64,000 bases of DNA, from assembly GCA_965224245.1 (NCBI GenBank), contig OZ245046.1, forward strand, positions 128,001 through 192,000, in the 5' to 3' direction. The translations under genes and the position numbers were made by a program. The notes under the pieces were generated by a model that was not told the origin of the DNA, did not search any database, and worked only from the letters and a program-made list of their open reading frames with translations. Shown piece by piece: positions 41,071-64,000 of this stretch. Source of the stretch: Candidatus Eiseniibacteriota bacterium. GTDB lineage: Bacteria > Eisenbacteria > RBG-16-71-46 > CAZAMP01. Numbering within the stretch: position 1 is the stretch's first letter; every line of letters starts with the position of its first letter.

Positions 41071-41192
41071 ATCGCCCCTGTCGGCGTCTTGCGGTCGAGC
41101 CCTCACGTGCCGAATCCGCGCGCGCATCGGCTCGCGTGGGCTCGAGAGAACGACCGCGGTGTGACCCTCGTCGTCGGTCGTCCGGGCGCGGC

Positions 41193-41830: not shown

Positions 41831-41866
41831 GGTTGTCGTAACGTTTACGATTATAATAACTTACGA
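41831..41866. other. AT-rich imperfect palindrome, Xer/dif-like or Fur-type operator
   Basis: GGTTGTCGTAA-CGTTTACGA-TTATAATAACT-TACGA stands out in very GC-rich DNA. Confidence 0.4.
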
Positions 41867-41879
41867 AGAGGGACAACCC

Positions 41880-42111
41880 GGGGCGGCGAGCCGGCGCCTC
41901 TTCCTCACGCTTCGTGCTCCTGGTGGAGCGTCCGAGCTGGCCATTCTCGATGTGTCGGGGTGCGCCGTCGGGCTCGTGTCCACGGCCGACACCGAAGGAC
42001 GTGATTGGAACGGACGAGGTGCCGATGAACGACCGGTGCCGTCCCGGCGTCTACGTCGCACGTCTCGCCGCGGGTGGCGCGGCGAGCACGCGCGTGCTCG
42101 TCGTTCGATGA
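41880..42111 (+). pseudogene. Orphan frameshifted FlgD-Ig CTD fragment
   Basis: LAILDVSG..V...WNGRGADERPVPS, then a frameshift at about 42043, then GVYVARLAAGGAASTRVLVVR*; no passenger domain or signal peptide. Confidence 0.7.
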
Positions 42112-42343
42112 CCGCTGCTCGGCCTTGACTCATGCGTTCACGCCGACGAACATGATCCGGCCTCGGAGCCAGCGCGATGAGAACGGCGGCCCGTGCTCGC
42201 GCGTCGAGCCACGCGGAACGCCGCCTCTATCCGGCACGGCGACGAGCTCGGAAGATGGCAGTGAGCCGATGAGCGCTGCGTGAGCGCCTGGTGGAGCTTC
42301 TGGTAGCCGGCGAGGCTCGTCGACGTTGAGTAGATCACCTCGA

Positions 42344-50658: not shown

Positions 50659-50807
50659 GGGACACCTCCCAGGCCCCGGGGTGACGATGGCCAACTGGGA
50701 TCGCGGCGTGCGGCCGGTGGTCTGGACCCCAAAGTGTCCGAGAATTCGGTCCCGTTGGCAAATGCTAGTCTTCCGACCCAACCCACGGTGAGCGTCGATG
50801 AAGCCGC

Positions 50808-51713
50808 TCACGTTTCGCCGTGGGCTCGCCTCGCCAGCACGACGTTCAGCATCGGCGATCTCACGTCGACCGCCGTGGGCCGCCACTTCTCGTACGCCGC
50901 ATCGAGAACGCGCTTGCTCGTCTCGGCGTCCATCGTCGGCAGGATGTTTCGGCGGAAGATCGGGATGTCGTACCAGCCCTTGTCCGACTCCGGTGAGTGC
51001 CGGAACCAGAAGAGCTCCTGACGTACGACCTCCAGCGCACACGACTCCAGGCCCTCGACGAGCTCCACCATGTATCGACGGCGCCGCTCGGCACGTGTCT
51101 CGTCGAGCGTCTCGTCCGGGGTGAAGCCGAACTCGGCACGTGCGACCTCGATCATCACGTCCGGCAGGCTCGGGCTCTGCTTGCGGGACTCGATCAGGTC
51201 GTCCGGGCTCGGGATGGAGGGGTCGTACGTCGTCTCCACCGGCTGTCCGTTCTCGATCGCGAGCGTGGGAAACGTGTTGAACACGATACGGAGGTCGCCG
51301 GCGGCGATCTCGGAGAGCTGCCGCAGCGTCTCCCGTGGCTTCATCTGCCAGAAGGCTGCATTGCTGACCACGCGATGCACCGGCCCCTCCACCACGTCGG
51401 CCAGCTCCTCGGCGGGCGAGCACAGGTACTCGATGCTGGTCGACGGAGCATGCTCGCGCGCGATGGCGAGCTGAGCCTCCGATCCGTCGAGCGCGACGAT
51501 GCGGGCGGCATCGGCATGGGCACGATACAGCGCATCCACGGTGGCACCCGTCCCGCATCCGAGATCCAGTACCGTCATCCCGGGGTGGACGTCGCAGAGC
51601 GCGACGAGGCGATCGCTCATGTCCCGATACATGCGGTGCTCCTCGGTGTACGCGCGATAGAGCCGTGCGTTCTCGGGCGTGTCCCAGTCGACTATCTTGC
51701 GCTCGTCGCTCAC
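50808..51713 (-). CDS. Class I SAM-dependent methyltransferase
   Basis: VLDLGCGTG; V.SNAAFW; SD AAGGAGG. Confidence 0.88.
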   Translation of the reverse strand: MSDERKIVDWDTPENARLYRAYTEEHRMYRDMSDRLVALCDVHPGMTVLDLGCGTGATVDALYRAHADAARIVALDGSEAQLAIAREHAPSTSIEYLCSPAEELADVVEGPVHRVVSNAAFWQMKPRETLRQLSEIAAGDLRIVFNTFPTLAIENGQPVETTYDPSIPSPDDLIESRKQSPSLPDVMIEVARAEFGFTPDETLDETRAERRRRYMVELVEGLESCALEVVRQELFWFRHSPESDKGWYDIPIFRRNILPTMDAETSKRVLDAAYEKWRPTAVDVRSPMLNVVLARRAHGET

Positions 51714-51769
51714 GTCGCCTCCTTCGACGAAGGCCGCCGACAGGCGGCGGACTCACGCGGCTCCCCTCG

Positions 51770-54670
51770 CTAGGAGCCGGCCCGGAGCTTCTCGAGACGT
51801 CGCTTCGCGCCCTCGACGATGGGAATGCCGGGGTCCGCACTCTCCCAGATGCTCAGGAACTCGTCGTATCGCTCGATCGCCTTGTCGTTCCAGCCCGACT
51901 CCTCATATGCCAGGCCGGCGTAGTAGTGCACGATGACGGCGCTCGTGGGGTCTTCTCCCCAGGACTCGTCGTAACGGTGCAGCGCGGCCTCGTACTCCCG
52001 CACCGCCTCCGACAGCCGGTGCGCGTGCTGATACGCACGTCCGAGATCGACGCGTTGCCAGATGGGTGTGTCGTAGGGGTCTTCCCGAACGATCCACTCG
52101 AAGTGCTCCACGGACTCCTCGAGCTGTCCGCGCGCGCGGGCGAGATGGCCGAGGCAGTAGCGGTACCCTCGTTCGGCGCCCTCGACACCCTCCTCGACGA
52201 GCTGGGCACGGCGCCTCGCAATGATCTCTGCTCGTTCGAGATCGCCGGCGAGCACGTACCAGCGACAGAGCTCCGAGTGAATCGCCGCTCCCGGATCGTC
52301 CGGATCACGGCTGGGCAGATGCTGCCCGTCCGCGATCGCCTCGTCGTACTCCCCGAGGATCTCGTGGATCTGGCCCTTCAGCAGGTGCTTGTCGTAGTGG
52401 TACCAGTCGTCCGTCGTGTTCTCCAGCCGGTCGGCGGCGATGCCCTGGTCGTACTGCTCCAGCGCCGCGGCGAACTTGCCCTGGTACGCCAGGATGTGGG
52501 CCAGATAGCAGCGAGCGTAGCTTCGCGTTCTCGGGCTCTCCGAGCTCAGCAGCCGCCGGTAGGTCGAAGCCGCCGCCGCGTAGTCGCGTTTCGCTCGGTA
52601 CTGGTGGCCCAGCTTCCAGATCGTGAACTCGGAATCGGGATTGATCTCCAGCGCCTTCCGATAGGAGGCGATCGCCTCATCGACCTTTCCTGCCCAGGCG
52701 TACAGGTCTCCGCGCGTGTCATACGGGTTGTACTCGTCGGGGGCCACCTCGATGTACTTGTTGATCGCCCAGATCGATTGCCCGAAGTCGCCGATGGCCT
52801 CGTAGATGTAGGCGAGCGTGTTGTACGGAAGCTTGAAGAGGGGATCGATCTCGATCGCGGCGTGGAGGTGGCGGATCGCTCCCTGTGGGTCGCCGCTGCT
52901 GAGCAGCGTTCCGAGCTGCAGATGGGCTTCCTTGTCGTCGGGATCGAGCGCGATGATCTTCTCGATGGTCTCGACCGAACCGGACACATCATCGTGGAGC
53001 TGCTTGTACTTCGCATCGATCCACAGCCGTTCCTTCCGGGTGACGTTCCGGGCGTGAGCCCACGCCTTCTCGACGAACACCCTTCCCGTTTCCCCAGGCG
53101 CGCTTCGAGCGAGCTGGAAGTAAGCCATGGCGAAGGTGGAGTCGATCTCGACCGCCCGCTGGAAACTCTGCCTCGCTCTCGATCGTTCGAAACGGTTGTA
53201 CAGGTCCAGACCTTCGAGGTAGTAGCGGTAGGCCTCGACGGACTGCGTGGACACCTTGACGTCGGCGGGAGTGGTGGACGTGACCGAGAGGTCCATGTCA
53301 CGCCTGATCTCGTCGGCCAGCCGGTCCGCGATCACGAAGATGTCTTCTTCCTCCGCTCCGCCCACGCGCTGGGATGACGCGACCTGGCCCGTCGCGATGT
53401 CGACGATCTGGGAGGTGGCCACGATCTCGGGCTGGGTCCGGAGCAGGCTCCCCAGCAACATCCACCTGGCGCCGGCCCTTCTCGCGACGTCCGTGGAGGT
53501 GCCGGAATCCAGCTTCTTGAGCCCTTCCTTCCCCTCGAGCTTGAGCAGGTCGTAGAGGCGCTGGCTGGAGATGACCGTCATCGACGACGACTCCGAGAGA
53601 TGGGTGATGAGCAGGTCCGTGATGATCTCGCCCAGCCTCTGCTCGTCCTCGCGGTCGGCCTTGTTGTCGAAGTACATGATCGCCAGCGTGTTCTCGTCGG
53701 TGGTGGGGGCGTTCGTTCGCCCGGCCAGCGGAAGCCGCCTGGCCACGAACAGGAGCGAGACGATGGCCAGCACGGCGACCGGTACGATCCATCGCCGTTG
53801 CCGTCGCACGTGTGACGCTTCGACCGACGGCATCACGACGGTGGCGGCGCCTTCCACGGTCAGTCGACTCTCGCGACGCAGATCGGCCGCGAGGTCGGTG
53901 GCCGACTGGTAGCGCTCGTCAGGATCCTTGGCGAGTGCTTTCCGGACGATCCGTTGCAGCTCGGGGGAGGCGGAGCTGCTGAACCGCGCCAGCGGCTGGG
54001 GCTCCTCGGTGGTGATGGAATGTGCGACCGCCGCGGCGTTCTCGCCACGGAAGGGAAGCCTCCCGGTGACCATCTCGTAGAGGATCGTGCCCAGCGAGAA
54101 GAGATCGGAGCGGTGATCGACGTCGGAGGAGCGCACCTGCTCGGGCGACATGTAGAAGGCGGTACCCAGCGTGACCGAGTCGTCTGTGAGCTTCGTCGCG
54201 CCGGTGACCTTCGCCAGGCCGAAGTCCAGAATCCGGACGTTGTCCGCGGTGTCGATGATGACGTTTGCCGGCTTCACGTCTCGATGCACGATGCCGGCGT
54301 CGTGCGCCCTGGCCAGCCCCTCCGCGATCTGAAGCGCGTACTTGAGCACCTTGTCGATGCGGAGACTCTCGTCGCCAATCGACGCGGAGAGCGGTGCACC
54401 CTCGACGTATGCCATCACGATGAACGGACGTCCCTCGTGCAGTGATACTTCGTGAATCGTGATGACGTTCGGATGATCGAGCGAGGCCGCGGCCTGGGCC
54501 TCGCGCCTGAAGCGGGTGAGTGCATCGGGGTCGGTGGCATCGACGTCGACGAGGAACTTGACGGCAACGCGACGACCGAGCTCGGTGTCCTCCGCCAGGT
54601 AGACTTCGCCCATACCGCCCTGGCCGAGCTTCTCGAGGATCCGGTAGTGGGAGATCGTTCGACCGAGCAT
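51770..54670 (-). CDS. Transmembrane Ser/Thr kinase with TolB_N/FlgO-like and TPR sensor
   Basis: MLGRTISHYRILEKLGQGGMGEV; HRDVKPAN; single TM; LAIMYFDN; many TPRs. Confidence 0.94.
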   Translation of the reverse strand: MLGRTISHYRILEKLGQGGMGEVYLAEDTELGRRVAVKFLVDVDATDPDALTRFRREAQAAASLDHPNVITIHEVSLHEGRPFIVMAYVEGAPLSASIGDESLRIDKVLKYALQIAEGLARAHDAGIVHRDVKPANVIIDTADNVRILDFGLAKVTGATKLTDDSVTLGTAFYMSPEQVRSSDVDHRSDLFSLGTILYEMVTGRLPFRGENAAAVAHSITTEEPQPLARFSSSASPELQRIVRKALAKDPDERYQSATDLAADLRRESRLTVEGAATVVMPSVEASHVRRQRRWIVPVAVLAIVSLLFVARRLPLAGRTNAPTTDENTLAIMYFDNKADREDEQRLGEIITDLLITHLSESSSMTVISSQRLYDLLKLEGKEGLKKLDSGTSTDVARRAGARWMLLGSLLRTQPEIVATSQIVDIATGQVASSQRVGGAEEEDIFVIADRLADEIRRDMDLSVTSTTPADVKVSTQSVEAYRYYLEGLDLYNRFERSRARQSFQRAVEIDSTFAMAYFQLARSAPGETGRVFVEKAWAHARNVTRKERLWIDAKYKQLHDDVSGSVETIEKIIALDPDDKEAHLQLGTLLSSGDPQGAIRHLHAAIEIDPLFKLPYNTLAYIYEAIGDFGQSIWAINKYIEVAPDEYNPYDTRGDLYAWAGKVDEAIASYRKALEINPDSEFTIWKLGHQYRAKRDYAAAASTYRRLLSSESPRTRSYARCYLAHILAYQGKFAAALEQYDQGIAADRLENTTDDWYHYDKHLLKGQIHEILGEYDEAIADGQHLPSRDPDDPGAAIHSELCRWYVLAGDLERAEIIARRRAQLVEEGVEGAERGYRYCLGHLARARGQLEESVEHFEWIVREDPYDTPIWQRVDLGRAYQHAHRLSEAVREYEAALHRYDESWGEDPTSAVIVHYYAGLAYEESGWNDKAIERYDEFLSIWESADPGIPIVEGAKRRLEKLRAGS

Positions 54671-54837
54671 GGACACTTCCATCTCGCTTGATCGACGGAG
54701 GTTAGGAGATAGTCGGTCAGCGGGTCAACGATGGTGCCGAGGATCGGGAGGCAATCCCGCGATGGAAGGAGGATCCGATCGATCTCGGACACGACGCTGG
54801 TCGCTCCCGGACAGCGCACCTCTTCGCAAGAAGGGGA

Positions 54838-54863
54838 GAGCCGCCTCGCGACCGAGGCGGCTC
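54838..54863 (-). terminator. Hairpin downstream of the small secreted gene
   Basis: GAGCCGCCTCG/CGAGGCGGCTC 11-bp stem followed on the minus strand by a pyrimidine run. Confidence 0.5.
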
Positions 54864-54910
54864 GATGCCTTTCTCGTACGCGGGGTGAGGATCAGGGACG
54901 GTGGCGCAGG

Positions 54911-55228
54911 CTAGCTACATGCGTCGATCGAGTATCCCCACGCGGTTGCCACGAACGCGCCGAGCGCCTGCATCGTCGGCTCGGGGATCGCGCCCATCTG
55001 ATACAAGTAGTCGGCCAGATTGGCGAGGCCGGATCGGGGTTCCTCCTGGTCGCTGGCGTGGAATCCCATCTCACCGGCCCGGGCGAAGACGGCGCTGACC
55101 TGTCCCCAGCACGCCGATCCCTGATCGGTGCTCCCGGTGTCATCGGGATCCGCAGAAGCTCCGGTGAACGCCGCCAGCATCATGATCGTTACCAGTCCCG
55201 CAAAGCCGAACATGCAGATGCGCCTCAT
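54911..55228 (-). CDS. Small secreted protein (105 aa, two Cys in the mature part)
   Basis: Signal peptide MRRICMFGFAGLVTIMMLAAFTGASA; CWGQ...MG.H...PR.GL.N. Confidence 0.7.
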   Translation of the reverse strand: MRRICMFGFAGLVTIMMLAAFTGASADPDDTGSTDQGSACWGQVSAVFARAGEMGFHASDQEEPRSGLANLADYLYQMGAIPEPTMQALGAFVATAWGYSIDACS

Positions 55229-55600
55229 CAGGTACCTCGATTGTTGGTAGATGCGAACTCGTCGCCACTCGTCGGCTGGCTCCACCGACACGTTCCCGAT
55301 CGCCTCACCCTGGAGAAGTGTAGCAGGCGATTCAGCGTGCGTCGGAGGCGAAGACACCGACGCACGCTCACACGCGGCCTCGCTCCCGCGAAGTCAGTTC
55401 TCGGTGGCGCCGATCTCGTCGCGCCGGGTCCGGTTTCAGCCGGGACAGCTATATAGCGCGATGGGGATCTTCGGCCGTGGTCGCATCGAGTCGGCCCCGT
55501 TCATTGCCTTGTTGCAGCCTTTGAACACGTTGCCCGGATCCCTCTGACGGCAGCGTGCGAGCCAACCCCGCGTCCGCGCCACCCGCGAGAAAGGTCTCGA

Positions 55601-58540
55601 TCACTCTCCAGTCGGAGATGCGCCGGAGATCCGCGTCAGTCTTGCAGCCGCGTCGACCGCCTCGGGCAGCGGTACGTCCGGATCGCCCCAGCGCGCGAGG
55701 AACTGGCGATAGTGTGCCTCGGCCATCACGATCTCACCGCGACTCTCCTCGAGGCGTGCCAGCGGATGGAGCACGGCCGTGTCGATGATGCGCCACTCGC
55801 CGTGCTCGAACTCCCGACCGAGCCGCGGATAGGGCGGCTCGATCACGCGGCGGTAGGCCTCGATGGCGGCGGTGGTGTCTCCGAGCGCGAGCGACAGTCG
55901 CGCATTCAGCTCTTCCTCCCTCTGCCGGTCCCGGTAGGCCGGCGAGAACCGGGACGCCGCGACCAGCGCCTCCTGTGCCGACGCGGTCAGATCCCGGTCG
56001 AGCGCGATCTCCGCGGACAGGAAGAGGTGCCAGACCTCGGCCTCCGGGCTGCGTGTCGTCGGAAGTGCGGTGCGAGATTCCTCGGCCACCGCGTCGGCAC
56101 CCGGACGGTCGCCGGAGGCGAGCAGGGCGCGAACCAGCCAGTACCGGGCTCGCCAGTAGTACTCGTTCGAGGCGATGGCCTCGCGAGCGGCGTCTCCGGA
56201 CTCCTCCGGCCGGCCGATCAAGAGAAAGACCTCGGCCCGTATCGAATGAAACATGGCCGGGTCCCAGGTCGGCATCGGGTTCAGCCAGATGACCCTCTCC
56301 TCTCGCGACAGCCCATCGAGGAAGCGTCCCTGGCACAGTGCCGCCAGTCCGGCGATGTGTTCGCTGTATGCCCGTTGATAGCCTTCCAGACGCTCGTTCC
56401 CGGCTCGCGCCACCCTCTCGGCCTCGGCGCCGTCGCCGACCTGCATGAGTGCGACGGCGTATCGGTACCATCCACCCCACTGCCCGGCCCTCATTCTCTC
56501 CGATGCGCGCTGCTCGAGCTCCGTCCAATCGCGTCGCGCGGTCAGGAGCGCCATCTCGAGATCCGTCACGACGGGGGTGGTCGCCCCGTCGGCACGTATC
56601 GACCGGATCATGGCTGTGACCTCGGCGGCGTCGCCCCTGAACAGCGAGTGCTCCGCCCAGTGATGGAGCACGACCTGGTAGCTCGGGTCGATCGAGAGCG
56701 CGCGCTCGAATGCGGCCTGTGCCCGGACGGGATCCCAGTGGCGAGCCGAGTGGGTCAGAACCTCACCGAATGCGTCGTGCGCGGCCGCGATCTGGACCTC
56801 GGCCACGATCAGCGGCTCGAGCAGATCGAAGGCCGAGTCGAACTCGGCATCGTTCCAGTCGACCGTCGCCTGGTAGATCGTGCGCCACTGCTCCGAGAGC
56901 CGATCCGTGTACGGGAGTCCCTGCCGCAGCGCCACGTGGGATCCGGCCTGGTCACCCTGCCAGTTCAGAGCCTGAGCCATCTGGAAGTACGCCATGGCGA
57001 AGCTCTCGTCACGGCGGATGGCGGCGGCGAAGTGCTCCGCGGCTTCCTCGAACTCCTGATGATGCAGCGCGAGCTCTCCGGCCGCGTAGTCACGGTATGC
57101 GTCCGGCGACGCGGTCAAGGTACGGGCGAGATCGAACCCGTCGGCCGCGCCGCCGCCGGTGGTCACCCCGAGCTCCCGGCGCACCTCGTTCGCTACGTCG
57201 CCGGCCAGTGCAAAGAGCTCATCCTCGTTCGCGGCATCGTGCCGGCGTGACCCGATGGTGTTCCCGGTGTGCACGTCGACCAGCTCGGCCGTGAGCACGA
57301 TCCGGGAGTTCACGTCCATCACCTGCCCGACCACCATGACGTCGAGCTGTGCGATGCGGGCCGCCTCCCGCGCCAGCGCCATCTCGAGGCCCGGGGTCCG
57401 CGCGCCCGCCCGCTCGAGAGATGCGGTGATCTTCGCCGTCGACGCGATGTCGAGGCCTCCCGACTCCACCAGGGCCGTCGTCACGAGCGCCATGAGCATG
57501 CGGCCGATGTGACCGGAGTCCTCGGGATCGGCGAGGTTCTCGAACCCGACGACGCCCACCGTGGAGCCCGATCCGAGGACGACGTCGGCGGTGGGGCGTA
57601 GCAGGAACCACAGCGTGGCGGTCACGGCAATGACGACGACGGATGCGATCACGGCGGTCACCGGGATCGGCCGGGGACGCCCGGGAAGGGAGCGACCGGG
57701 CGGGTTCGCCGCGAGGTCGACGAGGGCATCGAGCACCTCGGCGCCGCTCTGATACCGCGTGGCGGGGTCCTTCTGGAGACAGCGGTCCACGATCGCATCG
57801 AACCGCGCGGGCAGCGACGGCACGAACTCGCTCGGTGACGTGGGGGCGTCCCGCAGGATCGCGGACGTGAGATCGGAGGGCGTGGCTCCCTGAAACGGCC
57901 GTCGCCCGGTTGCCAGCTCGTGCAGGAGAATGCCCAGCGAGAACACGTCCGTCCGAAGATCGACCTCCAGGCCTCGGACCTGCTCCGGCGACATGTAGGG
58001 AAGCGTGCCGACGACCGAGCCCACCTCCGTCACCGCCGGCGTCGTGGTTTCCGATCCGATCGCGGGGGGAGCGACCAGCTTGGCGAGCCCGAAGTCGAGC
58101 ACCTTGATCGCGCCGTCGTCGGTTGTCATGACGTTCGCGGGCTTCAGATCCCGGTGCACGATCCCTTTCGCATGCGCCGCGGCGAGGGCACGCGCGATCG
58201 CGGTGCCCGTCTCGAGCAGTCGCGCGAACGGCATCCCGCCGGGAGGGATCGTGCGATCCAGGCTCGTGCCATCCACCAGCTCCATGGTCAGGAAGTGGAC
58301 GGCGCCCGCCTGCTCGACCGAGTGGATCGTCACGATGTGGGGATCGTTCAGCGCGGCGATCGTCTTGGCCTCGCGCTCGAAGCGAGCCAGGCCGGCGGGA
58401 TCGGACGCCAGCGAGGCGGGGAGGACCTTGAGCGCGACCCGCCGCTCGAGCGTCAGGTCGTCGGCGACGTAGACCTCTCCCATCCCGCCGGCCCCGATCC
58501 GGTCGAGGATCCGGTAGTGGCCCAGAGTTTCGCCGATCAA
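55601..58540 (-). CDS. Transmembrane Ser/Thr kinase with TolB_N-like and TPR sensor
   Basis: TTG start after SD GGAGGG; GHYRILDRIGAGGMGEV; HRDLKPAN; TM; VVGFENL; TPRs. Paralog of 51770-54670. Confidence 0.93.
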   Translation of the reverse strand: MIGETLGHYRILDRIGAGGMGEVYVADDLTLERRVALKVLPASLASDPAGLARFEREAKTIAALNDPHIVTIHSVEQAGAVHFLTMELVDGTSLDRTIPPGGMPFARLLETGTAIARALAAAHAKGIVHRDLKPANVMTTDDGAIKVLDFGLAKLVAPPAIGSETTTPAVTEVGSVVGTLPYMSPEQVRGLEVDLRTDVFSLGILLHELATGRRPFQGATPSDLTSAILRDAPTSPSEFVPSLPARFDAIVDRCLQKDPATRYQSGAEVLDALVDLAANPPGRSLPGRPRPIPVTAVIASVVVIAVTATLWFLLRPTADVVLGSGSTVGVVGFENLADPEDSGHIGRMLMALVTTALVESGGLDIASTAKITASLERAGARTPGLEMALAREAARIAQLDVMVVGQVMDVNSRIVLTAELVDVHTGNTIGSRRHDAANEDELFALAGDVANEVRRELGVTTGGGAADGFDLARTLTASPDAYRDYAAGELALHHQEFEEAAEHFAAAIRRDESFAMAYFQMAQALNWQGDQAGSHVALRQGLPYTDRLSEQWRTIYQATVDWNDAEFDSAFDLLEPLIVAEVQIAAAHDAFGEVLTHSARHWDPVRAQAAFERALSIDPSYQVVLHHWAEHSLFRGDAAEVTAMIRSIRADGATTPVVTDLEMALLTARRDWTELEQRASERMRAGQWGGWYRYAVALMQVGDGAEAERVARAGNERLEGYQRAYSEHIAGLAALCQGRFLDGLSREERVIWLNPMPTWDPAMFHSIRAEVFLLIGRPEESGDAAREAIASNEYYWRARYWLVRALLASGDRPGADAVAEESRTALPTTRSPEAEVWHLFLSAEIALDRDLTASAQEALVAASRFSPAYRDRQREEELNARLSLALGDTTAAIEAYRRVIEPPYPRLGREFEHGEWRIIDTAVLHPLARLEESRGEIVMAEAHYRQFLARWGDPDVPLPEAVDAAARLTRISGASPTGE

Positions 58541-58719
58541 GATCCCTCCATCGGACGGGCTGGCCGAGCGGGAACGCCGGAGCCACGAGGAGTAGTATCC
58601 GAGAGTGCGAACGTGTTGCCAACCGGTTGTTTGCGGCAACGCGAGGCGTGTCGCACCCCGCAGGTCGTCGTCCCGCGGTGACCCACGCCGAGGTTTCCGT
58701 TTCCGATGCTCGGCGGCAG

Positions 58720-59021
58720 CCTGCCCAACGCCCGCGCCGCCGGCGGCTACGCGCTTCGAGCGGATCGTGCCGACCCCTTCCCGGCTGCGCACGCGCATGT
58801 CGTTCTCGGTCGCGAAGGCCGGGCATGTCACGCTGAGCATCTACGATGCACGCGGTCGTCTCGTGCGCGTTCTCGCGGACGCCTCGATGACGGAGGGGAT
58901 GCACCGGCTCGACTGGGACGGCACGAGCACGCACGGCGAGACGATGCCGAACGGGACCTACTGGATCCGATTGCGGACGCTGGACGCGACGGTCAGTCGG
59001 CGCATCTCGATGGTTTGCTGA
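58720..59021 (+). pseudogene. Orphan FlgD-Ig CTD (fragment or stand-alone)
   Basis: VTLSIYDARGRLVRVL......G.H.L.WDG....G..MPNGTY.IRL...RRISMVC; no signal peptide or passenger domain upstream. Confidence 0.65.
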
Positions 59022-59479
59022 GAGAGCGCGTGTGCTCGAGTGAGGGGCGGTAGCGCTCGAAACAGCCACCGAGTCCCGAGACGTCGCGGGACCCGGGGTG
59101 GATCCGGGTCGATATGGCGAATCGCGTGGCCTCGACTGACACGCAACATCGTCACTCTGTCCGGTGGCCTTGACGATCCGACGGGCCGCATGGATCGAGT
59201 CTGCACGAACGACCGCGATCAGCTGCGATGAGGACGCCTCCCGGACCCGTCTCCTGATCAGATGGAAATGCCTATGTGGCCGCGATATCATGAATTCGAG
59301 CCCGAACCCTGTCGTACACACCAGACCATTGGCGCTAGACTGAACATCCAGTAATCGGGGCTGGATCGGGTCATCGTCGGCGTGCGTCTGTTCGAACGGC
59401 GTGCAGGCGCACACGTCCTCACACTGGATTCCGGCCTCTCTACGGCACTCGAGTCCGAGTCGGGGGGCATCGAGCCGAC

Positions 59480-60061
59480 ATGGAATCCACGGCCACGCTT
59501 CTCTCCCTCGTTCGCGAGGGCGACGAGAAGGCCAAGAGCCGCCTCTTCGAGCGGTACCTTCCACTTCTCGTTCGATGGGCGTCGGGCCGGCTGCCGCCGG
59601 CGACCCGATCGCTGGCCGATACGAATGACCTCGTTCAGGTCACCCTCCTGAAAGCGTTGAACAAGGTAGACGGGTTCCAGCCCCGACACGAGGGGGCGTT
59701 TCTGTACTACCTGCGCCGAGCCCTCGTGAACCAGATCCGCGATCTGATCCGGCATGCGAAGCGGCAGCCCGAGATGCGGTCGCTCTCGGAGGACATTCCC
59801 GACCAGGGTGCAACACCGCACGGGGACGCGCTGAGGGGTGAGATCATGGATCGATACGACGCCGCTCTGGAGACGCTCACGCCGGCTCAGCGCGAGGCCG
59901 TCGTGTTGCGCCTGGAGCTGGGGCTCACGCACGTGCAGGTGGCCGAGGCGCTCGAGGACTGCCCGTCCGCGGACGCGGCGCGCATGCTGGTCACGCGCGG
60001 CATTCTCCGCCTGGCCAAGGAGATGGGACCCGACCTGAACCCCGATGGGAGCACCCGTTGA
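59480..60061 (+). CDS. ECF RNA polymerase sigma factor (kinase-associated type)
   Basis: ST..LL..VR.GD..A..RLF.RY.P.L...A..RL...DT.DLVQ.T; L...QREAVVLR.E.GL....VAE.L...S..AAR....R. Confidence 0.93.
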   Translation: MESTATLLSLVREGDEKAKSRLFERYLPLLVRWASGRLPPATRSLADTNDLVQVTLLKALNKVDGFQPRHEGAFLYYLRRALVNQIRDLIRHAKRQPEMRSLSEDIPDQGATPHGDALRGEIMDRYDAALETLTPAQREAVVLRLELGLTHVQVAEALEDCPSADAARMLVTRGILRLAKEMGPDLNPDGSTR

Positions 60062-61749
60062 CGCCCGACGACGAGGTTCTTCGCAGGATAGCCGAGGAGA
60101 TCGCGGACCTCCGCTCCATCGACTGGGAGCAGGAGAGCGTCGTGGACGGCCCGCTGGCGGTGAGGCTAGGGAACCTGCGTCTTCTGGACGCGATCCGGTC
60201 TCTCCACCAGGACAGCGCGGACCCCGACGGTGCGACCACGACCGAGGATGCGAAGCCCGGTCCGTCGGCCGAACCGGAGATCGGCTCGTACTGGGGTCCG
60301 CTGCGTATCGTCGAGCGTGTCGGCCACGGATCCTTCGGCGACGTCTTCCGGGCGTGGGACCCGACGCTGCAGACACACGTGGCGCTCAAGCTGCTCCACC
60401 GGCGGCGAGGGAAACCGGGGCGGTTGCTCCGAGAAGCACGCCAGATGGCGAAGGTGCGTCACGAGAACGTCGTCACGGTGCACGGCGCCGCGGAGCACGA
60501 CGGGCGGATCGGGATCTGGACCGAGTTCATCGAGGGGAAGACGCTCGAGCAGGAGCTCTCCGAGCGCGGCGCCTACGGAGCCGACGAGGCGGCGCTGGTG
60601 GGCCGGGATCTCGTCCGCGCCATCGCCGCCGTCCACGCGGCCGGGCTCGTGCACCGCGACATCAAGACGACGAACATCATGCGCGCGGTGGGGGGGCGGC
60701 TGGTGCTCATGGACTTCGGCACCGTGATCGATCGGGAGCAGCTCGAGTCGCTCGGACCCTCCGACGCGTTCGTGGGAACGGCGCTCTACATGGCGCCCGA
60801 GCTCTTCCTGGAAGGACACGGCGGCAAGGCGGCCGACGTGTACTCGCTGGGTGTGGTTCTCTATCGCCTCGTGACCGGGACCTTCCCGGTCGACGCGAAG
60901 AACCCGATCGAGCTCGGGGCCAAGCATCGCCGAGGTGAGCGTGTCCCGCTGCGCGATGCCCGACCGGACCTGCCGGCCGCCTTCGTGAGCATCGTGGATC
61001 GCGCTCTCGCGACGACGCCCGAGGACCGGCCCGGAAGCATGGGCGAGATGGAACGCGAGCTGGTCTCGTTCCTGAGCGCGCTCCCCGGGGATCCCCGGTC
61101 CGTCCGACGGAGCCTCCCGCGCTGGATCCTCCCGTTGGCGGCGACCGCGCTCGTGGTGGTCGCGATCCTACTCTGGTCGCTCGTGTCCGGTGGTGCAGGG
61201 GAGCTCCGTGTCGATGCGGAGCTCTTCCGGGATCGGGTGGGGGTCGAGGAGCGGCTGCGAGCGGGCGGTCGCGTGCAGCCCGGAGACCACCTCTTCCTGG
61301 AGCTGCTCGCGTCGACCGACTTCCACGCCTACGTGTTCAACGAAGACGAGCAGGGAAACACGCATCTCCTGTTCCCGCTCACCGGGCTCGAGCCCTCCAA
61401 CCCGCTCGAGGGTGGACGCACCCACCGGCTACCCGGATCGCGCGACGGTGTTCCGTTGACCTGGGACGTCGACGCCTACGGCGGGCGCGAGACCCTGTAC
61501 ATCGTGGCGTCACGGGCTCCCCTCGAGGATCTCGAGGCAGAGATGCGACGCTTTCCCGAGGCGGGATCCTCGCCGGGGATCCCGATCGGGTCCGGTTTCC
61601 TGCGACGCAGCATCGGAGGGCTCGGGTCGGCCGCGGCCGAGCGGGCGGCGGATGAGCCGACGCTCGGAGACTTCATCGGCCGGCTATCGACCGAGCGAAC
61701 CAGTGAGCTCTGGACGTGGTCGATCCAGCTGGAGAATCAGCCACCATGA
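60058..61749 (+). CDS. Transmembrane Ser/Thr kinase with C-terminal DUF4384-like domain
   Basis: VG.GSFG.V, HRDIKTTN, DFG, GT.LYMAPE; TM; G..VQPGD.L.L...YVFN.DE.G...LLFP...ETLYIVASR.PL; TTGA overlap with the sigma gene. Confidence 0.9.
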   Translation: MTPDDEVLRRIAEEIADLRSIDWEQESVVDGPLAVRLGNLRLLDAIRSLHQDSADPDGATTTEDAKPGPSAEPEIGSYWGPLRIVERVGHGSFGDVFRAWDPTLQTHVALKLLHRRRGKPGRLLREARQMAKVRHENVVTVHGAAEHDGRIGIWTEFIEGKTLEQELSERGAYGADEAALVGRDLVRAIAAVHAAGLVHRDIKTTNIMRAVGGRLVLMDFGTVIDREQLESLGPSDAFVGTALYMAPELFLEGHGGKAADVYSLGVVLYRLVTGTFPVDAKNPIELGAKHRRGERVPLRDARPDLPAAFVSIVDRALATTPEDRPGSMGEMERELVSFLSALPGDPRSVRRSLPRWILPLAATALVVVAILLWSLVSGGAGELRVDAELFRDRVGVEERLRAGGRVQPGDHLFLELLASTDFHAYVFNEDEQGNTHLLFPLTGLEPSNPLEGGRTHRLPGSRDGVPLTWDVDAYGGRETLYIVASRAPLEDLEAEMRRFPEAGSSPGIPIGSGFLRRSIGGLGSAAAERAADEPTLGDFIGRLSTERTSELWTWSIQLENQPP

Positions 61750-64000
61750 TCGGGATGTGGAGACTCGCGGCCGGTGCCGTGCTCCTCGCGACCTCCGCCA
61801 TGGCCGCGGAGACGGATCTGACGGCGCCCGAGCTCGACACACGGCTGGATCGGATCTGGACGATGATCCGGGACGAGCGAGCGTTCGCGGTCGCCGATTC
61901 CGTAGCGCTCGAGCTCCTGGCCGACGTGGAGACGTCGTTCGGGCACGAGTCCGTTTCCGTGGCGCGTGTGCTGGACCCGCTCGTGATCGCCCGACTCGGG
62001 CAGCGCGCGGTCGACGCGGAGTGCCTGAGCCTGGCCGAGCGGGCGGTCCGCATCAAGGAGCGGGACCCGGTTCCGGAGGAGCCCGAGCTGGCGACGAGTC
62101 TACTCGGTCTGGGCCGGGTGCTGCAGGTGCTGGAGCGATCCGGGGAGGCTCGTACGCCTCTGGAACGCGCTCTCGAGATCCGGCGGAGCCGGTTCGGCGC
62201 TGCATCCGCCGAGGTCGCGGACGTGCTCACACAGCTCGCGCAGGTCTACATCGATCTCGATCTCGAGCCGGAGGCCGCCAGCATGCTCCAGGAGACGCTC
62301 GCGATCTACGACGCGTCCCCGGACACCGACGTTCGCACGGTCAGTCCACTGCTATACAACCTCGCATGGCTCCGCCGCGCGCTCGGTCAGTTTCGAGCCG
62401 CCGAAGAGCTATACCAGAGGTTGCTCGACATCACGCCCGAGTCGGTGATGCTCGTTCGCGCGTCTGTCTTCAACGGCCTGGGAGCGCTCCATCACGAGGA
62501 GGGCCGGTACGCCGAGTCCCTGGCCGAGCTGGAGCACGCGCTCGCTGTCGCACGGGAGGCCGGGGCCCACCCGGTCCTGATGACACACATTCTCAACAAT
62601 CTCGGGTTCGTCTTGTCGAACCTCGGAGACCATGCAGAGGCCGTCACGCGCTACGACGAGGCGCTGTCGCTGCAGCGGGAGCTTCACGGCGACGAGCACA
62701 CCATGACCGCCACCATGCTCGCAAATCTCGCCGAGACGCACCTGGCCCTGGGACACGTGGACGAGGCCCGTGAGCTGCACGAGCAAGCGCTCGGCATCCG
62801 GGAGCGCATTCTCGGCCCGGACCACGCCGAGACGGCGACGAGCCTCGGCGGACTCGCCGAGGTCTATCTCGAGATGGACCGGCCCGATGACGCTCGGCGG
62901 CTGCTGGAACGCGCGCTCGCGATCCGCACACGTCATCTCGGTCCCGATCACTTCGACACCGGCAAGGCCGTGGCCCGATTGGCCCGGTCACTCGCGGCGT
63001 CGGACAGCCTGGACGCGGCCGAGCGATCGTATCGCCGGGCGCTGGACGTGATCGCGGCCACGCTGGATCGGGGCAACCCGGAATGGTCCGAGGTCAGTCT
63101 CGGGCTCGCCGAGGTCGAGCTGTCTCGTGGCGCGTTCACGGAGGCCTGGACGCTGGCGCGCGAGGCCGAGACGCGATCCCGCGAGCACGCGAGGCTCACG
63201 GCGGCCGCGCTGTCGGAGCGCCAGGCGCTGCAGTACGCCTCGATCCGCAAGGAGGCGCTGGATCTCATCTTGACCCTCGTGGTGTCCGGGCATCGGAGCG
63301 ATGCACTGGAGGCCTGGGACCACGTGATTCGTTCCCGGGCCCTGGTCCTGAACGAGGTCGTGCTGCGTCGCGAGCGGCTGCACGCCGAAGCCGACACGTC
63401 GGTGACGCGGCTCATGGCCCGCTACGCGGATGCGAGCACCGCGCTCGCCACGCTGATGGTCCGGGGACCGGATGCCTCCGACCCGGGCTCGTTCCGCGAC
63501 CGGCTCCGGGAGGCGCGTGCCGACCGCGAACAGGCCGAGCGGGCCCTTGCGCTCCGCAGCTCGGCATTTCGCGATCGTCTGGCCACCGCCCGGCGCGGCG
63601 CCAATCAGGTGCTCGCGGCCCGGCCCGAGGGCTCGGCGGTTCTCGCGTACGTCCGCTACGAGCGATCCGGTCCGGGTCCCGGCGCGGCCTACGCGGCCTT
63701 CGTGACCGGGAAGGGCGCGGCCGCTCCCGTCGTGGTGGATCTCGGGAGCGCCGAGTCGATCGACGCCCTCGTCGCGGACTGGAGAGCGGAGGTGGTTCTC
63801 CCGTCGCCGGCCGATCTGGATCGGGCGACCCGACGGTATCGAGACGTGGGGAGGCGGCTGCGCGAGGCGATCTGGGATCCGGTCGTCCCCGCGCTCGAGG
63901 ATGCACGGACCGTCTTCGTGGTACCCGATGGTGAGCTGCATCGCGTCAGCGCCTACACGCTGCCGGACGAAGGCGGCTACCTGGTCGAGTCGGGAATCCG
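61746..64000 (+). CDS. Signal-peptide TPR repeat + CHAT (caspase-like protease) protein, partial
   Basis: Manual translation: MIGMWRLAAGAVLLATSAMA, kinesin-light-chain-type TPRs (ALGIRERILGPDH.ETA), then LREAIWDPVVPALEDARTVFVVPDGELHRV...LP...GYLVE, typical of the CHAT N-terminus. ATGA overlap with the kinase stop. Confidence 0.85.
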   Translation, partial: MIGMWRLAAGAVLLATSAMAAETDLTAPELDTRLDRIWTMIRDERAFAVADSVALELLADVETSFGHESVSVARVLDPLVIARLGQRAVDAECLSLAERAVRIKERDPVPEEPELATSLLGLGRVLQVLERSGEARTPLERALEIRRSRFGAASAEVADVLTQLAQVYIDLDLEPEAASMLQETLAIYDASPDTDVRTVSPLLYNLAWLRRALGQFRAAEELYQRLLDITPESVMLVRASVFNGLGALHHEEGRYAESLAELEHALAVAREAGAHPVLMTHILNNLGFVLSNLGDHAEAVTRYDEALSLQRELHGDEHTMTATMLANLAETHLALGHVDEARELHEQALGIRERILGPDHAETATSLGGLAEVYLEMDRPDDARRLLERALAIRTRHLGPDHFDTGKAVARLARSLAASDSLDAAERSYRRALDVIAATLDRGNPEWSEVSLGLAEVELSRGAFTEAWTLAREAETRSREHARLTAAALSERQALQYASIRKEALDLILTLVVSGHRSDALEAWDHVIRSRALVLNEVVLRRERLHAEADTSVTRLMARYADASTALATLMVRGPDASDPGSFRDRLREARADREQAERALALRSSAFRDRLATARRGANQVLAARPEGSAVLAYVRYERSGPGPGAAYAAFVTGKGAAAPVVVDLGSAESIDALVADWRAEVVLPSPADLDRATRRYRDVGRRLREAIWDPVVPALEDARTVFVVPDGELHRVSAYTLPDEGGYLVESGI

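Follow-up and report, generated by a model that had tools for sequence, protein, structure and literature searches.

Can a bacterium pass a signal from outside the cell to a sigma factor by way of an exported protease and a membrane kinase? The question is raised by three adjacent genes at the end of the window, the whole 64,000-nucleotide stretch of DNA that was analysed, and by two sites upstream of them:

59480-60061, + strand: ECF sigma gene (193 aa; ORF call)
60058-61749, + strand: membrane Ser/Thr kinase gene (563 aa), with a TTG start overlapping the sigma stop
61746-64000, + strand: TPR-CHAT gene, truncated after 751 of its 1031 residues where the window ends
59263-59291, + strand: sigma-70-type promoter-like site TGGAAA-17-TATCAT, ~190 nt upstream of the sigma gene
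59334-59341, + strand: putative GCTAGACT motif with -10-like TAGACT, read from the sequence

The + strand ORFs bore out the claim of the earlier note that the three genes are coupled by 4-nt start/stop overlaps, the sigma/kinase junction being TTGA and the kinase/CHAT junction ATGA. One site of the TGGAAA-17-TATCAT type was found upstream, compared with a mean of 0.2 in shuffled sequence, and a TAT[GC]AT box lies upstream of the sigma genes in 13/14 divergent relatives. A second box, GCTAGACT/TAGGCT with TTGnnn 17-18 nt upstream, was recognised by eye ahead of the C11-CHAT operons of related loci. In sequence, the two conserved boxes resemble promoters of the housekeeping type. Our best explanation of the whole, offered tentatively and at somewhat less than even confidence, is that the sigma, kinase and TPR-CHAT genes form one operon for a trans-envelope signalling module in which the protease would act on the kinase and the kinase on the sigma.

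An ECF sigma factor with an acidic region 2.2

The first gene encodes an ECF (group IV) sigma-70 factor. Pfam identified Sigma70_r2 (E 3.9e-13, residues 22-95) and r4_2 (E 1.5e-6, residues 125-158) and found neither region r3 nor region r1 in the 193-aa protein. The match to Pfam Sigma70_ECF was weak (27.9 bits), the match to TIGR02937 was above its cut-off (79 bits; cut-off 42.9), and the best NCBIfam match, TIGR02984, scored below the TIGR02984 cut-off. The protein database yielded 602 relatives. The sigma alignment located one motif of particular interest:

59618-59629, + strand: region 2.2 motif D47-T48-N49-D50

This motif had been read as having a Thr in place of the usual acidic DAED, and a case for Thr phosphorylation had been built on it. 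The DTND motif is indeed present, but Thr48 stands for the Ala of DAED, both Asp residues are retained and no acidic residue has become Thr. What has truly been lost is the Glu of the Q-E that follows the motif, which is Val54 here and Val in 85/120 relatives. The Thr and the last Asp of the motif were invariant in 24/24 sigmas of the surveyed loci and in 120/120 database relatives, and position 1 was D or E in 117/120. The family consensus is D-T-D-D, with DTDD (58) and DTND (18) the commonest forms among the 120 relatives. Because region 2.2 retains its acidic residues, the phosphorylation argument drawn from DTND is weakened, and the "missing charge" mechanism of ECF43 sigma factors is not transferable to this family. 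Thr48 may be structural. In the sigmas of the anti-sigma-type loci described below, which belong to a different clade, Thr occupied the equivalent position in 2/17.

A membrane kinase with an outer DUF4384 domain

The second gene encodes a protein with the following parts:

60058-60297, + strand: conserved N-terminal extension (aa 1-80) with invariant W23 and L40
60307-61041, + strand: Hanks kinase domain (aa 84-328; Pkinase E 9.3e-43, Pfam)
61111-61206, + strand: single transmembrane segment (aa 352-383), from hydropathy
61213-61746, + strand: extracytoplasmic domain (aa 386-563), predicted as DUF4384 beta-sandwich, flexible loop, helix and closing strand
61600-61620, + strand: loop motif L515-R516-R517-S518-I519-G520-G521, consensus L-R-G-[VI]-G-G-L

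With its Gly-rich loop, VAxK Lys, catalytic loop, DFG and APE, the protein is by its motifs a Hanks Ser/Thr kinase. K111, H199, D201, N206, D219 and P247-E248 were invariant in 19/19 kinase family members; the window kinase has HRD and several relatives have HGD. Hydropathy and Pfam agreed with the one TM helix and C-terminal DUF4384 noted earlier. The 19-aa hydropathy maximum of the segment is 2.51, RSVRRSLPR stands just before it, and 18/19 family members have a TM segment at the equivalent place. DUF4384 was identified at residues 406-488 (E 3.4e-11, Pfam), on the outer side of the membrane according to the predicted topology, as had been supposed; the sandwich follows the TM segment with hardly any linker.

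The AF2 model of the ectodomain had a pLDDT of 84 and gave no PDB fold match at E <= 0.01. The ectodomain family comprised 714 representative clusters at E <= 1e-30, and full-length carriers combined Pkinase with DUF4384 in 74/74. R517 was invariant in 151/151 alignment rows, and the motif regex matched 145/150 representatives. The R517 loop is the low-confidence part of the ectodomain model; since model residues 132-136 exceed pLDDT 50, R517 may act as a structural latch.

A probably exported TPR-CHAT protein with an invariant dyad

The third gene encodes a protein with four recognisable parts:

61746-61808, + strand: signal-peptide-like start (aa 1-21, A-M-A/A), by a hydropathy and charge rule
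62043-63185, + strand: kinesin-light-chain-type TPR array (aa ~100-480; TPR_12 E 3.4e-59, TPR_10, Pfam)
63186-63842, + strand: helical middle region (aa 481-699), family-specific, with a conserved RSRALVLDE block
63843-64000, + strand: first ~52 CHAT-domain residues (VFVVPDGELH...), placed from the CHAT span of full-length P0001

The simple hydropathy/charge rule found a signal-peptide-like N-terminus, in agreement with the Sec-type signal peptide claimed earlier. The N-terminus reads MIGMWRLAAGAVLLATSAMA followed by AE, an A-x-A site is present, and the h-region is not long enough to anchor the protein in the membrane (19-aa hydropathy maximum 1.43). The same rule was passed by 0/120 sigmas and 0/8 kinases. 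Across the surveyed loci, such starts were found in 52/57 intact CHAT ORFs, compared with 0/24 kinases and 0/23 sigmas, and in 17/18 CHAT ORFs of the kinase-type loci. Predicted export is a trait of the CHAT family.

The best PDB sequence matches of the TPR array were kinesin light chain TPRs, and 68 relatives were found with the helical middle region plus the CHAT start. Pfam found no CHAT domain in the 751-residue piece inside the window. The dyad lies beyond the window end and was sought in P0001, an identical full-length protein of 1031 aa from the protein database, which has its CHAT domain at 700-1029 (E 9.4e-60) and contains ATHG and LSACDTG. The downstream catalytic dyad that the earlier note had asked for is present there as His856/Cys936; both residues were invariant in 48/48 aligned relatives, and the dyad was likewise invariant in 45/45. 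A CHAT-domain model (pLDDT 79) was made for the triad locus L059, a homologue of the window protein. Its best matches were Csx29 (8eex_B, E 2e-9) and DdvA (8rot_A, E 4.4e-9); the 36 matches at E <= 1e-3 included Csx29, DdvA, separase, SAVED-CHAT and gingipain. Judged on this homologue, the predicted fold is caspase-like. The CHAT protein is in all likelihood exported and catalytically competent.

The invariance of the dyad (48/48 and 45/45) implies selection for catalysis on some substrate, which argues against the idea that CHAT does not cut the kinase at all and is a TPR co-receptor or restraint binding the ectodomain loop, with a protease activity that would cut CHAT itself or a third protein. 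Kinesin-light-chain-type TPRs do bind short linear peptides, the invariant Arg motif lies in a flexible loop, and the dyad of DdvA is described in a resting state (PMC11506125), all of which suit such a binding role. However, the window-type loci showed no third exported partner that is conserved, and we regard this explanation as improbable.

The three genes recur together

To what extent does CHAT belong with the other two genes? A survey that took CHAT relatives as anchors covered 80 loci, and a window-type kinase was present in 24 of them, 23 of those 24 with the window-type ectodomain; a window-type sigma was present in 23 of the 24, and the 24th stops at a contig edge. The order sigma>kinase>CHAT, as in the window, was found in 5 of the 24, a divergent order in 15 and other orders in 4. 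The neighbourhood check proposed for the triad was thus answered by its recurrence in several gene orders. A further 22/80 loci have an ECF sigma and/or a zinc-finger anti-sigma factor where the others have the kinase, which points to CHAT working with a sigma regulator and not being a bystander. Where at least 4.6 kb of upstream sequence was present, an ECF sigma and/or anti-sigma factor lay within 4.6 kb upstream in 41/59 loci; a downstream sigma was found in 4/54. The 59 informative loci comprised 21 of the kinase type, 21 of the anti-sigma/sigma type and 17 in which no sigma or regulator was found near the CHAT relative. On the CHAT tree, the window-type loci were scattered and did not form a single clade. 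A conserved periplasmic [LF]-R-[GSAT] was present in 13/13 anti-sigma partners, and the divergent relatives add a Peptidase_C11 gene. We consider it very probable that the sigma, kinase and TPR-CHAT proteins constitute a conserved functional module.

The 17 loci with no nearby sigma regulator suit a different explanation, in which TPR-CHAT is the output: an exported protease, acting for example on foreign or misfolded envelope proteins, that is merely co-expressed or controlled, while the kinase senses its own signal via DUF4384. Co-transcription by itself would suffice for this, and the ectodomain kinases (714 clusters) far outnumber the CHAT-linked loci seen. However, the link holds across four gene orders and with either kind of regulator, and DdvA is reported to join an anti-sigma domain and TPR-CHAT in one polypeptide, which argues for joint action (PMC11506125). 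Moreover, the CHAT gene of relatives is divergent from sigma and has its own housekeeping-type promoter box, so that it is not obviously sigma-dependent. A pure effector role seems unlikely to us, although less so than the binding role above.

Comparison with known systems

The earlier statement that no characterised example of such a chain existed needs correction: in DdvA-DdvS the anti-sigma factor has a periplasmic TPR-CHAT, and Csx29-Csx30-RpoE and SAVED-CHAT/PCaspase/PCc-sigma/PCk are partial precedents. DdvA of Myxococcus xanthus is described as a TPR-CHAT in the periplasm joined through a TM helix to a zinc anti-sigma domain (PMC11506125). CHAT self-cleavage was proposed there as the site-1 step; the dyad mutants behaved like the wild type under the conditions tested, and CHAT proteolysis is undemonstrated according to that account (PMC11506125). 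In DdvA-DdvS, as presumably in the window, a single-pass membrane partner and an extracytoplasmic His-Cys TPR-CHAT control an ECF sigma factor, and the CHAT folds correspond (8rot_A, E 4.4e-9, L059 homologue model). Csx29 and DdvA have the nearest folds of known structure, DdvA with a periplasmic TPR-CHAT; the window thus contains a split DdvA-like module with a kinase in the place of the anti-sigma factor. The TPR-CHAT here is a separate, probably exported protein, whereas in DdvA it is the C-terminus of the membrane partner; that partner is here a Hanks kinase with DUF4384 and not a zinc anti-sigma domain, and the long TM linker of DdvA is almost absent from the window kinase. The anti-sigma-type sister loci share the CHCC zinc motif of DdvA, and Pfam found no CHCC zinc anti-sigma domain in any of the three window proteins. 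DdvA-like fusions are reported only in Myxococcota and one Comamonas (PMC11506125), whereas the split-form loci came from MAGs labelled Acidobacteriota, Eisenbacteria, Krumholzibacteriota, Gemmatimonadota and others.

The exchange of kinase and anti-sigma factor in homologous loci could also mean that the kinase is mainly a membrane tether of the anti-sigma kind, the outer CHAT cut being followed by an RseP-type cut that frees sigma or a sigma-kinase fragment, with phosphorylation not the switch. RseP is reported to cut DdvA after its TPR-CHAT part is removed (PMC11506125); the conserved kinase extension could hold sigma, whose region 2.2 is acidic already. However, this extension showed no similarity to the zinc anti-sigma (ZAS) profile (hhalign probability 1.6%), and the kept catalytic residues (19/19) and Pkinase domain (74/74) would be needless for a mere tether. 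In addition, two kinase-linked ECFs are reported to be directly phosphorylated (PMC8999054, PMC13147305). The tether seems to us about as improbable as the pure binding role.

The latter pairs are those of ECF43 (EcfP/PknT, EcfK/PknS), in which, as here, the gene of a single-pass Ser/Thr kinase directly follows the sigma gene (+1) and region 2.2 has a conserved Thr; a conserved kinase N-terminal extension is also described for PknS (PMC13147305). In ECF43, DAED is replaced by uncharged S/T motifs (QTTA, STTA) with the phospho-Thr at position 3 (PMC8999054, PMC13147305), whereas here the Thr stands second in D-T-[DN]-D, a motif that is not of the ECF43 form. ECF43 kinases have outer TPRs; here DUF4384 is outside, Pfam found no TPR in the outer domain of the window kinase, and it is the CHAT protein, a separate polypeptide, that bears the TPRs. 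When PknS lacks its periplasmic domain, the kinase domain is reported to be phosphorylated under non-inducing conditions (PMC13147305).

A true ECF43-like pair (N-T-T-A) was observed elsewhere in the window, at 3-1927 on the - strand. Its sigma at 962-1927 scored 154.8 bits against Sigma70_ECF, compared with 27.9 for the sigma at 59480-60061.

Craspase (Csx29-Csx30-Csx31-RpoE) likewise combines a TPR-CHAT protease with an ECF sigma, its sigma-binding partner is reported to be cleaved by that protease, and one C-terminal domain group of the substrate Csx30 is DUF4384 (bioRxiv 10.1101/2022.08.17.504292); Csx29 was also the best fold match of the L059 CHAT model. Type III-E Craspase is, however, described as cytoplasmic and RNA-triggered via Cas7-11, with a partner that is not a kinase (bioRxiv 10.1101/2022.08.17.504292). 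The CHAT protein here has a signal-peptide-like start; the 64-kb window contained no CRISPR-like repeat array, and no CBASS, CRISPR or cas genes were recognised in it, PADLOC giving generic kinase and TPR matches only. The type III-B SAVED-CHAT/PCaspase/PCc-sigma/PCi/PCk cluster of Haliangium ochraceum shares with our loci a CHAT protein, a sigma and a Ser/Thr kinase, and has a second clan-CD protease (bioRxiv 10.1101/2023.06.23.546230), which the Peptidase_C11 gene of the divergent relatives parallels. In contrast, that system is described as cytoplasmic and triggered by cyclic oligoadenylate via SAVED, with a kinase, PCk, whose role is not known (bioRxiv 10.1101/2023.06.23.546230), and as described it lacks a TPR array, a signal peptide and DUF4384.

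In actinobacterial ECF54, an ECF sigma with a conserved nearby TPR-CHAT gene, proteolytic regulation has been predicted; the genes described with it encode carboxypeptidase-regulatory-like proteins and subtilases but no kinase, and it belongs to another phylum (PMC7826278). In the regulated intramembrane proteolysis of sigma-E by RseA-DegS-RseP, too, a periplasmic protease acts first on the outer part of a membrane-bound sigma regulator, but DegS is a serine protease, RseA is an anti-sigma factor and no phosphorylation step is part of the description (PMC11506125).

A proposed model for signalling across the envelope

The trio, which recurs in many soil bacteria, is probably a kinase version of a known protease-linked outside-to-gene switch. 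TPR-CHAT would serve the pathway as both its extracytoplasmic sensor and its protease, as proposed for the periplasmic TPR-CHAT of DdvA. A signal bound by the TPR array would lead CHAT to cleave or release the outer domain of the kinase, the candidate cut being at the invariant Arg in the L-R-G-x-G-G loop, and loss of the ectodomain restraint would turn the kinase on. The kinase N-terminal extension would then dock sigma, which would be phosphorylated, with Thr48 in region 2.2 as the candidate site, and phosphorylated sigma would engage RNA polymerase. That the kinase acts on sigma by phosphorylation is slightly favoured in our judgement; that CHAT acts on the ectodomain by proteolysis is plausible, with chances a little short of even, and Thr48 and Arg517 are each doubtful as the exact sites.

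An unlikely but broader possibility is that exported TPR-CHATs act on ECF sigmas as a modular "site-1" gate that is widespread in Acidobacteriota and neighbouring phyla, with CHCC anti-sigma factors and Hanks kinases as interchangeable membrane partners. The TPR-CHATs would recognise both by an outer motif of the hydrophobic-Arg-small type, which reads L-R-G-x-G-G in the kinases and [LF]-R-[GSAT] in the anti-sigma partners. The kinase version of such a gate would convert proteolysis outside the cell into sigma phosphorylation inside, and we know of no characterised system that does so. On this broader view, the divergent relatives would have a second protease-substrate pair, made up of a clostripain-like protease in the cytoplasm and a small protein of tandem x4-R-G peptide repeats, which could generate a peptide signal or serve as bait.

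ECF sigmas are known to be controlled in two unusual ways, each in a few organisms: either a membrane kinase phosphorylates them, or their anti-sigma factor bears a periplasmic, caspase-like TPR-CHAT. This locus joins both. The CHAT component is not restricted to myxobacteria, the split form being spread across several poorly studied soil phyla, and the exchange of kinase and anti-sigma factor in one slot is a natural experiment on the role of CHAT. Compared with DdvA, a protein of 1000 residues in which the trigger and the protease activity are unproven, a soluble protease-substrate pair may be the simpler one to test, and C936, R517 and T48 are concrete residues for mutation.

A sigma factor, a transmembrane kinase and a TPR-CHAT protein are encoded by overlapping genes

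Positions 59480-64000 of the window are occupied by three ORFs on the plus strand:

59480-60061, +, ECF sigma factor ORF, 193 aa (Pfam Sigma70_r2, E 3.9e-13; r4_2; Sigma70_ECF)
60058-61749, +, kinase ORF, 563 aa, TTG start (Pfam Pkinase and DUF4384)
ATG at 61746, running past the window end, +, TPR-CHAT ORF (Pfam TPR_12/TPR_10, long array)

The ORF junctions read TTGA and ATGA, and the ATG of the third ORF overlaps the kinase stop codon. The three-gene observation of the earlier note is real and largely correct. In the kinase, Pkinase covers residues 84-328 (E 9.3e-43) and DUF4384 residues 406-488 (E 3.4e-11). A single strongly hydrophobic stretch (352-383) follows RSVRRSLPR, which predicts that the catalytic domain lies inside and the final 180 residues outside. 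The 19 kinases of related loci (alignment A2) retain all catalytic residues and have in common an N-terminal extension, in which Trp23 and Leu40 are invariant, and a TM segment followed by a variable Pro/Ala-rich linker and the outer domain; the linker is nearly missing from the window's kinase. Several relatives in A2 have H-G-D in the catalytic loop (non-RD), and the window's kinase has H-R-D.

The outer domain belongs to a large family. An exhaustive profile search retrieved 4133 representative proteins at E <= 0.001 (714 at E <= 1e-30), whereas a word-indexed search found only 8. Among the 150 matches listed, the domain was C-terminal in 150/150, and all 74 full-length examples were Pkinase+DUF4384 proteins. 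In an AlphaFold model of this ectodomain (pLDDT 84), a beta-sandwich leads into a low-confidence loop, after which come a helix and a closing strand. Searched against PDB folds, the model gave nothing at E <= 0.01 and only weak beta-sandwich look-alikes; its profile found nothing among PDB sequences, and a plasmid collection yielded one weak Deinococcus DUF4384 match. The most conserved linear element of the domain lies in the low-confidence loop: Arg517, within L-R-G-[VI]-G-G-L, is invariant in 151/151 rows. The loop pattern was matched by 145 of the 150 listed representatives, with Leu before the Arg in 126 of these and Gly after it in 120.

The TPR-CHAT protein retains the catalytic dyad and is predicted to be exported

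The window ends at residue 751 of the TPR-CHAT protein, ahead of its catalytic part. An identical, full-length database protein (P0001, 1031 aa) contains a CHAT domain at residues 700-1029 (E 9.4e-60) with the motifs ATHG and LSACDTG, and His856 and Cys936 are invariant in all 48 aligned CHAT relatives (alignment A1). The catalytic dyad that the earlier note had expected downstream is thus present. The N-terminus of the window's protein reads MIGMWRLAAGAVLLATSAMA and then AE, with an A-x-A site and a hydrophobic core not long enough to anchor the protein in a membrane. A simple signal-peptide rule was applied to this and the neighbouring families: near the start, Lys/Arg followed by ten uncharged residues with a mean hydropathy of at least 2.0.

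Proteins passing the signal-peptide rule
CHAT proteins in A1 (database starts): 34/48
CHAT ORFs of kinase-type loci: 17/18
All intact CHAT ORFs away from contig edges: 52/57
Sigma factors, database: 0/120
Sigma factors, loci: 0/23
Kinases, database: 0/8
Kinases, loci: 0/24

By this rule, predicted export is a trait of the CHAT family. The sequences show the parts of the module and their predicted sidedness, the intact dyad and the intact kinase.

Against PDB sequences, the whole TPR-CHAT protein matched TPR proteins only, with no CHAT match, and the CHAT domain of a homologue gave no matches. As these searches were uninformative for CHAT, a fold search was needed. The AlphaFold CHAT-domain model of L059, a locus carrying all three genes (45-row alignment, pLDDT 79), had Csx29 as its best PDB match (8eex_B, E 2.1e-9), followed by DdvA of Myxococcus xanthus (8rot_A, E 4.4e-9) and then by separases, SAVED-CHAT and gingipains.

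CHAT genes are linked to ECF sigma modules in two forms

A genome scan with A1 returned 80 loci, all from MAGs and all anchored on the CHAT gene. Their labels include Acidobacteriota (Vicinamibacteria, Polarisedimenticolia, Bryobacteraceae), Eisenbacteria, Krumholzibacteriota, Gemmatimonadota and Latescibacterota. With the window's sigma factor, kinase domain and ectodomain as queries against the ORFs of these loci, a window-type kinase was found adjoining the CHAT gene in 24/80. The window-type ectodomain was present in 23 of the 24 (the exception being L031), as was the window-type sigma factor; L071 stops at a contig edge where the sigma gene is expected.

Gene orders in the kinase loci
sigma>kinase>CHAT, as in the window: L018, L049, L059, L071, L076
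kinase<sigma, divergent from CHAT: 15 loci
other orders: L015, L031, L036, L045

On likeness to the window's own sigma factor and kinase, 34 loci had been labelled as lacking a partner. This label was wrong, as sigma and anti-sigma genes were found upstream. Pfam identified the genes directly upstream of CHAT in those loci as zf-HC2 anti-sigma factors with C-terminal TPRs or as ECF sigma factors; the anti-sigma N-termini carry an invariant C...H-x3-C-x2-C, and a TM segment comes after it. A second survey queried the loci with these upstream proteins and counted as informative the 59 that extend 4.6 kb or more upstream. Within 4.6 kb upstream of CHAT, an ECF sigma factor and/or anti-sigma factor occurred in 41/59 (38 with sigma, 18 with anti-sigma). 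In the control loci with at least 4.6 kb downstream, a sigma gene occurred on that side in 4/54 and an anti-sigma gene in 0/54. CHAT family members therefore regularly form the third part of ECF sigma modules. The informative loci comprise 21 of kinase type, 21 of anti-sigma/sigma type and 17 of neither; the corresponding numbers for all 80 are 24, 22 and 17, with 17 flanks too short to judge. Judged by gene position, the kinase and the anti-sigma factor fill one slot beside CHAT, and the neighbourhoods demonstrate a conserved CHAT linkage to ECF regulators in two interchangeable forms. The case is weakened by the 17/59 informative loci without any recognised partner.

Some loci depart from these layouts. 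L033 (5690-12359) encodes a Sigma70_ECF-type sigma factor (E 2e-58, region 2.2 Q-P-T-A), a TPR_12-fused kinase (879 aa) and then a TPR-CHAT protein. Four-gene loci (L021 3123-11258, L025 2961-11258, L055 3104-11373) contain an ECF sigma factor, a zf-HC2 anti-sigma factor, a large outer-membrane barrel and a TPR-CHAT protein. The barrel is CarboxypepD_reg + OMP_b-brl_4 by Pfam (E about 1e-160; L021 and L025 only were scanned), and the four-gene order is reminiscent of cell-surface signalling through an outer-membrane transducer. Pairs of TPR-CHAT paralogues, side by side or close to each other, occur in some genomes (L047 500-11468, L051 482-6087, L064 4801-11012, L045 7466-16827), and in L045 two C11-CHAT units converge on a single sigma-kinase pair.

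Peptidase_C11 genes and upstream boxes

Of the kinase loci that are not of window-type order, 17/19 have a clostripain-like Peptidase_C11 gene immediately 5' of CHAT (Pfam E 1e-18 to 1e-23 in five proteins scanned), mostly with a small repeat protein gene between the two; neither gene was found in the window. The C11 proteins open directly with the catalytic domain (e.g. MAKKPWTVM) and look cytoplasmic, those of L010 (4790-6577), L034 (6627-7826), L028 (187-1923), L037 (5696-7477), L042 (5296-7392) and L045 (5064-7442) being without signal peptides. Short tandem repeats, each unit containing a single Lys, form the C-termini of several (KGFNLS and ELGFAK, ~7 times each, KYSDNS, KFGP.S and GPGDVKSDL). 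The small repeat protein (L026 7284-7730, L015 441-1046, L036 7239-7871, L041 6917-7417 and others) had no Pfam match and no visible signal peptide. It consists of tandem hexa-/heptapeptides, each ending in R-G or K-G (REPGRG, EDSERG, KEPGRG, EKAERG, KPMGRG, KQADKGP), and a conserved tail, DIFRR.TDLGGHL.VAFVAPV; the L015 repeat DNA (568-703) has a period of 18 nt and 7.6 copies by TRF. In a quick maximum-likelihood tree of 84 CHAT domains, the C11-bearing loci formed one group (23 rows, SH-aLRT 83), the window-type loci were scattered and poorly resolved, and the window's protein grouped weakly (87) with L013, L031 and L058.

A TAT[GC]AT box precedes 13 of 14 divergent sigma genes, C11-CHAT operons are preceded by TTGnnn-17-TAGACT or TAGGCT, and the window has TGGAAA-17-TATCAT plus GCTAGACT. 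Since these conserved boxes resemble housekeeping -35/-10 elements, an ECF-type autoregulated promoter was rejected, and no sigma target motif was found.

The sigma factor carries an invariant Thr in region 2.2

Region 2.2 of the window's sigma factor reads D47-T48-N49-D50. All 120 of its closest relatives have Thr at position 2 and Asp at position 4, position 1 is Asp/Glu in 117/120 and position 3 is mostly Asp; DTDD (58) and DTND (18) are commonest, and the 24 sigma factors beside related kinases follow the same pattern. The earlier note had read the Thr as replacing the acidic motif. The motif is as described, but the Thr stands for the Ala of DAED, so the patch remains acidic; what is truly lost is the charge of the Glu in the Q-E that follows, a residue that is Val54 in the window and Val in 85/120 relatives. 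In ECF43 sigma factors such as EcfP and EcfK the motif is uncharged (STTA, QTTA or QATE), and its third residue is the phospho-Thr (PMC8999054, PMC13147305). The sigma factor studied here is therefore kinase-linked and yet fails the defining ECF43 motif test. Position 48 is Thr in 27/27 kinase-type versus 2/17 anti-sigma-type sigma factors, a comparison between two different sigma clades. Invariant Thr48 is a candidate phospho-acceptor and nothing beyond.

Comparison with known systems and a possible mechanism

The anti-sigma factor DdvA crosses the membrane by one TM helix, with a CHCC zinc domain in the cytoplasm and, in the periplasm, a TPR-CHAT part of ~900 residues that has a His-Cys dyad. 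In the model its authors propose, a signal induces CHAT to cleave itself as a site-1 step ahead of RseP; they report that truncated forms are lost in an RseP-dependent manner, with the trigger and CHAT activity stated to be undemonstrated; DdvA-like fusions are described there only from Myxococcota and one Comamonas (PMC11506125). The anti-sigma-type loci here encode the same protein split in two pieces, and the window locus has the same arrangement with a kinase replacing the anti-sigma factor. Two cytoplasmic CRISPR systems also combine such parts: in type III-E, Csx30, a binding partner of the ECF sigma factor RpoE, is cut by Csx29 (bioRxiv 10.1101/2022.08.17.504292), and a Haliangium type III-B cluster contains SAVED-CHAT, a sigma factor, a Ser/Thr kinase and a caspase-like protease (bioRxiv 10.1101/2023.06.23.546230). 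In the searched parts of the ECF reclassification supplement, CHAT is mentioned for actinobacterial ECF54 only, and no kinase-linked group is listed beyond ECF43, Planctomycetes or Proteobacteria (PMC7826278). A full-text literature search found no description of a split or kinase form of the TPR-CHAT/sigma module, and PADLOC defence models gave generic kinase and TPR matches only. We rate the module as a DdvA-like pairing of an extracytoplasmic TPR-CHAT protein and an ECF sigma regulator, in which a Hanks kinase replaces the anti-sigma factor and would exert ECF43-type control.

In the mechanism we propose, the exported TPR-CHAT protein would sense something via its kinesin-light-chain-type TPRs and then remove or release the outer domain of the kinase; loss of this domain would activate the kinase, which would phosphorylate the sigma factor. 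The activation step is borrowed from PknS, whose truncated forms are phosphorylated without stimulus and whose full-length form is not (PMC13147305). The anti-sigma partners carry P-x-[YFW]-x-P-x-x-[LF]-R-[GSAT] directly before their outer TPRs (Arg in 13/13), and they are not related to the kinase outer domain that bears the L-R-G element. Several clan-CD proteases cleave after Arg. Given this specificity, the hydrophobic-Arg-small element shared by kinases and anti-sigma factors is a candidate CHAT site, although it is short and the likeness may be chance; Arg517 may equally be a structural latch.

We give substantial weight to three other arrangements. CHAT may be a co-receptor that does not cut, CHAT may instead be the output, or the kinase may be a tether released by intramembrane proteolysis. 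The N-terminal extension of the kinase was rejected as a zinc anti-sigma domain (hhalign probability 1.6%), which counts mildly against the tether arrangement. A complex prediction of CHAT 210-1031 (A1) with the kinase ectodomain (alignment A3) scored 0.00 without controls and speaks neither for nor against binding. The genes 3' of CHAT in the five window-type loci had nothing recognisable in common, and no conserved output gene was found among them; this weakens the case. The gated signalling chain proposed in the earlier note is partly supported, by the dyad, the sidedness and the conserved linkage, and has partial precedent. On our reading, the module would join DdvA-like CHAT gating to ECF43-type kinase control, widen the known range of the CHAT-gated form and offer a separable protease-substrate pair for testing, the substrate role being putative.

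Other genes in the window

A second sigma-kinase pair lies at 3-1927 on the minus strand, and 39544-58840 holds a run of further Ser/Thr kinase genes:

3-1088, -, Hanks kinase following the N-T-T-A sigma factor, cut by the window start
962-1927, -, Sigma70_ECF sigma factor (E 3.1e-45; region 2.2 N-T-T-A, uncharged ECF43-type; ORF start over-extended)
39544-41070, +, Ser/Thr kinase
47074-51840, -, kinase fused to NB-ARC/AAA_16 and MalT-like TPRs
51773-54682, -, kinase with TPRs
55604-58840, -, kinase with TPRs, directly upstream of and divergent from the studied operon

A FlgD Ig-like domain (E 2.8e-11) makes up the last ~55 residues of a short ORF at 58605-59021 (+) that overlaps the divergent kinase ORF at its 5' end; the same domain is found at the C-terminus of a 1094-aa ORF at 42326-45610. 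The short ORF has no visible signal peptide or body and may be a remnant of a secreted protein gene. At 30528-30824, a tandem repeat of 102-105 nt (2.6-2.9 copies), with a consensus rich in Cys, Asp and Asn codons, may encode a repeated Cys/Asp-rich protein module.
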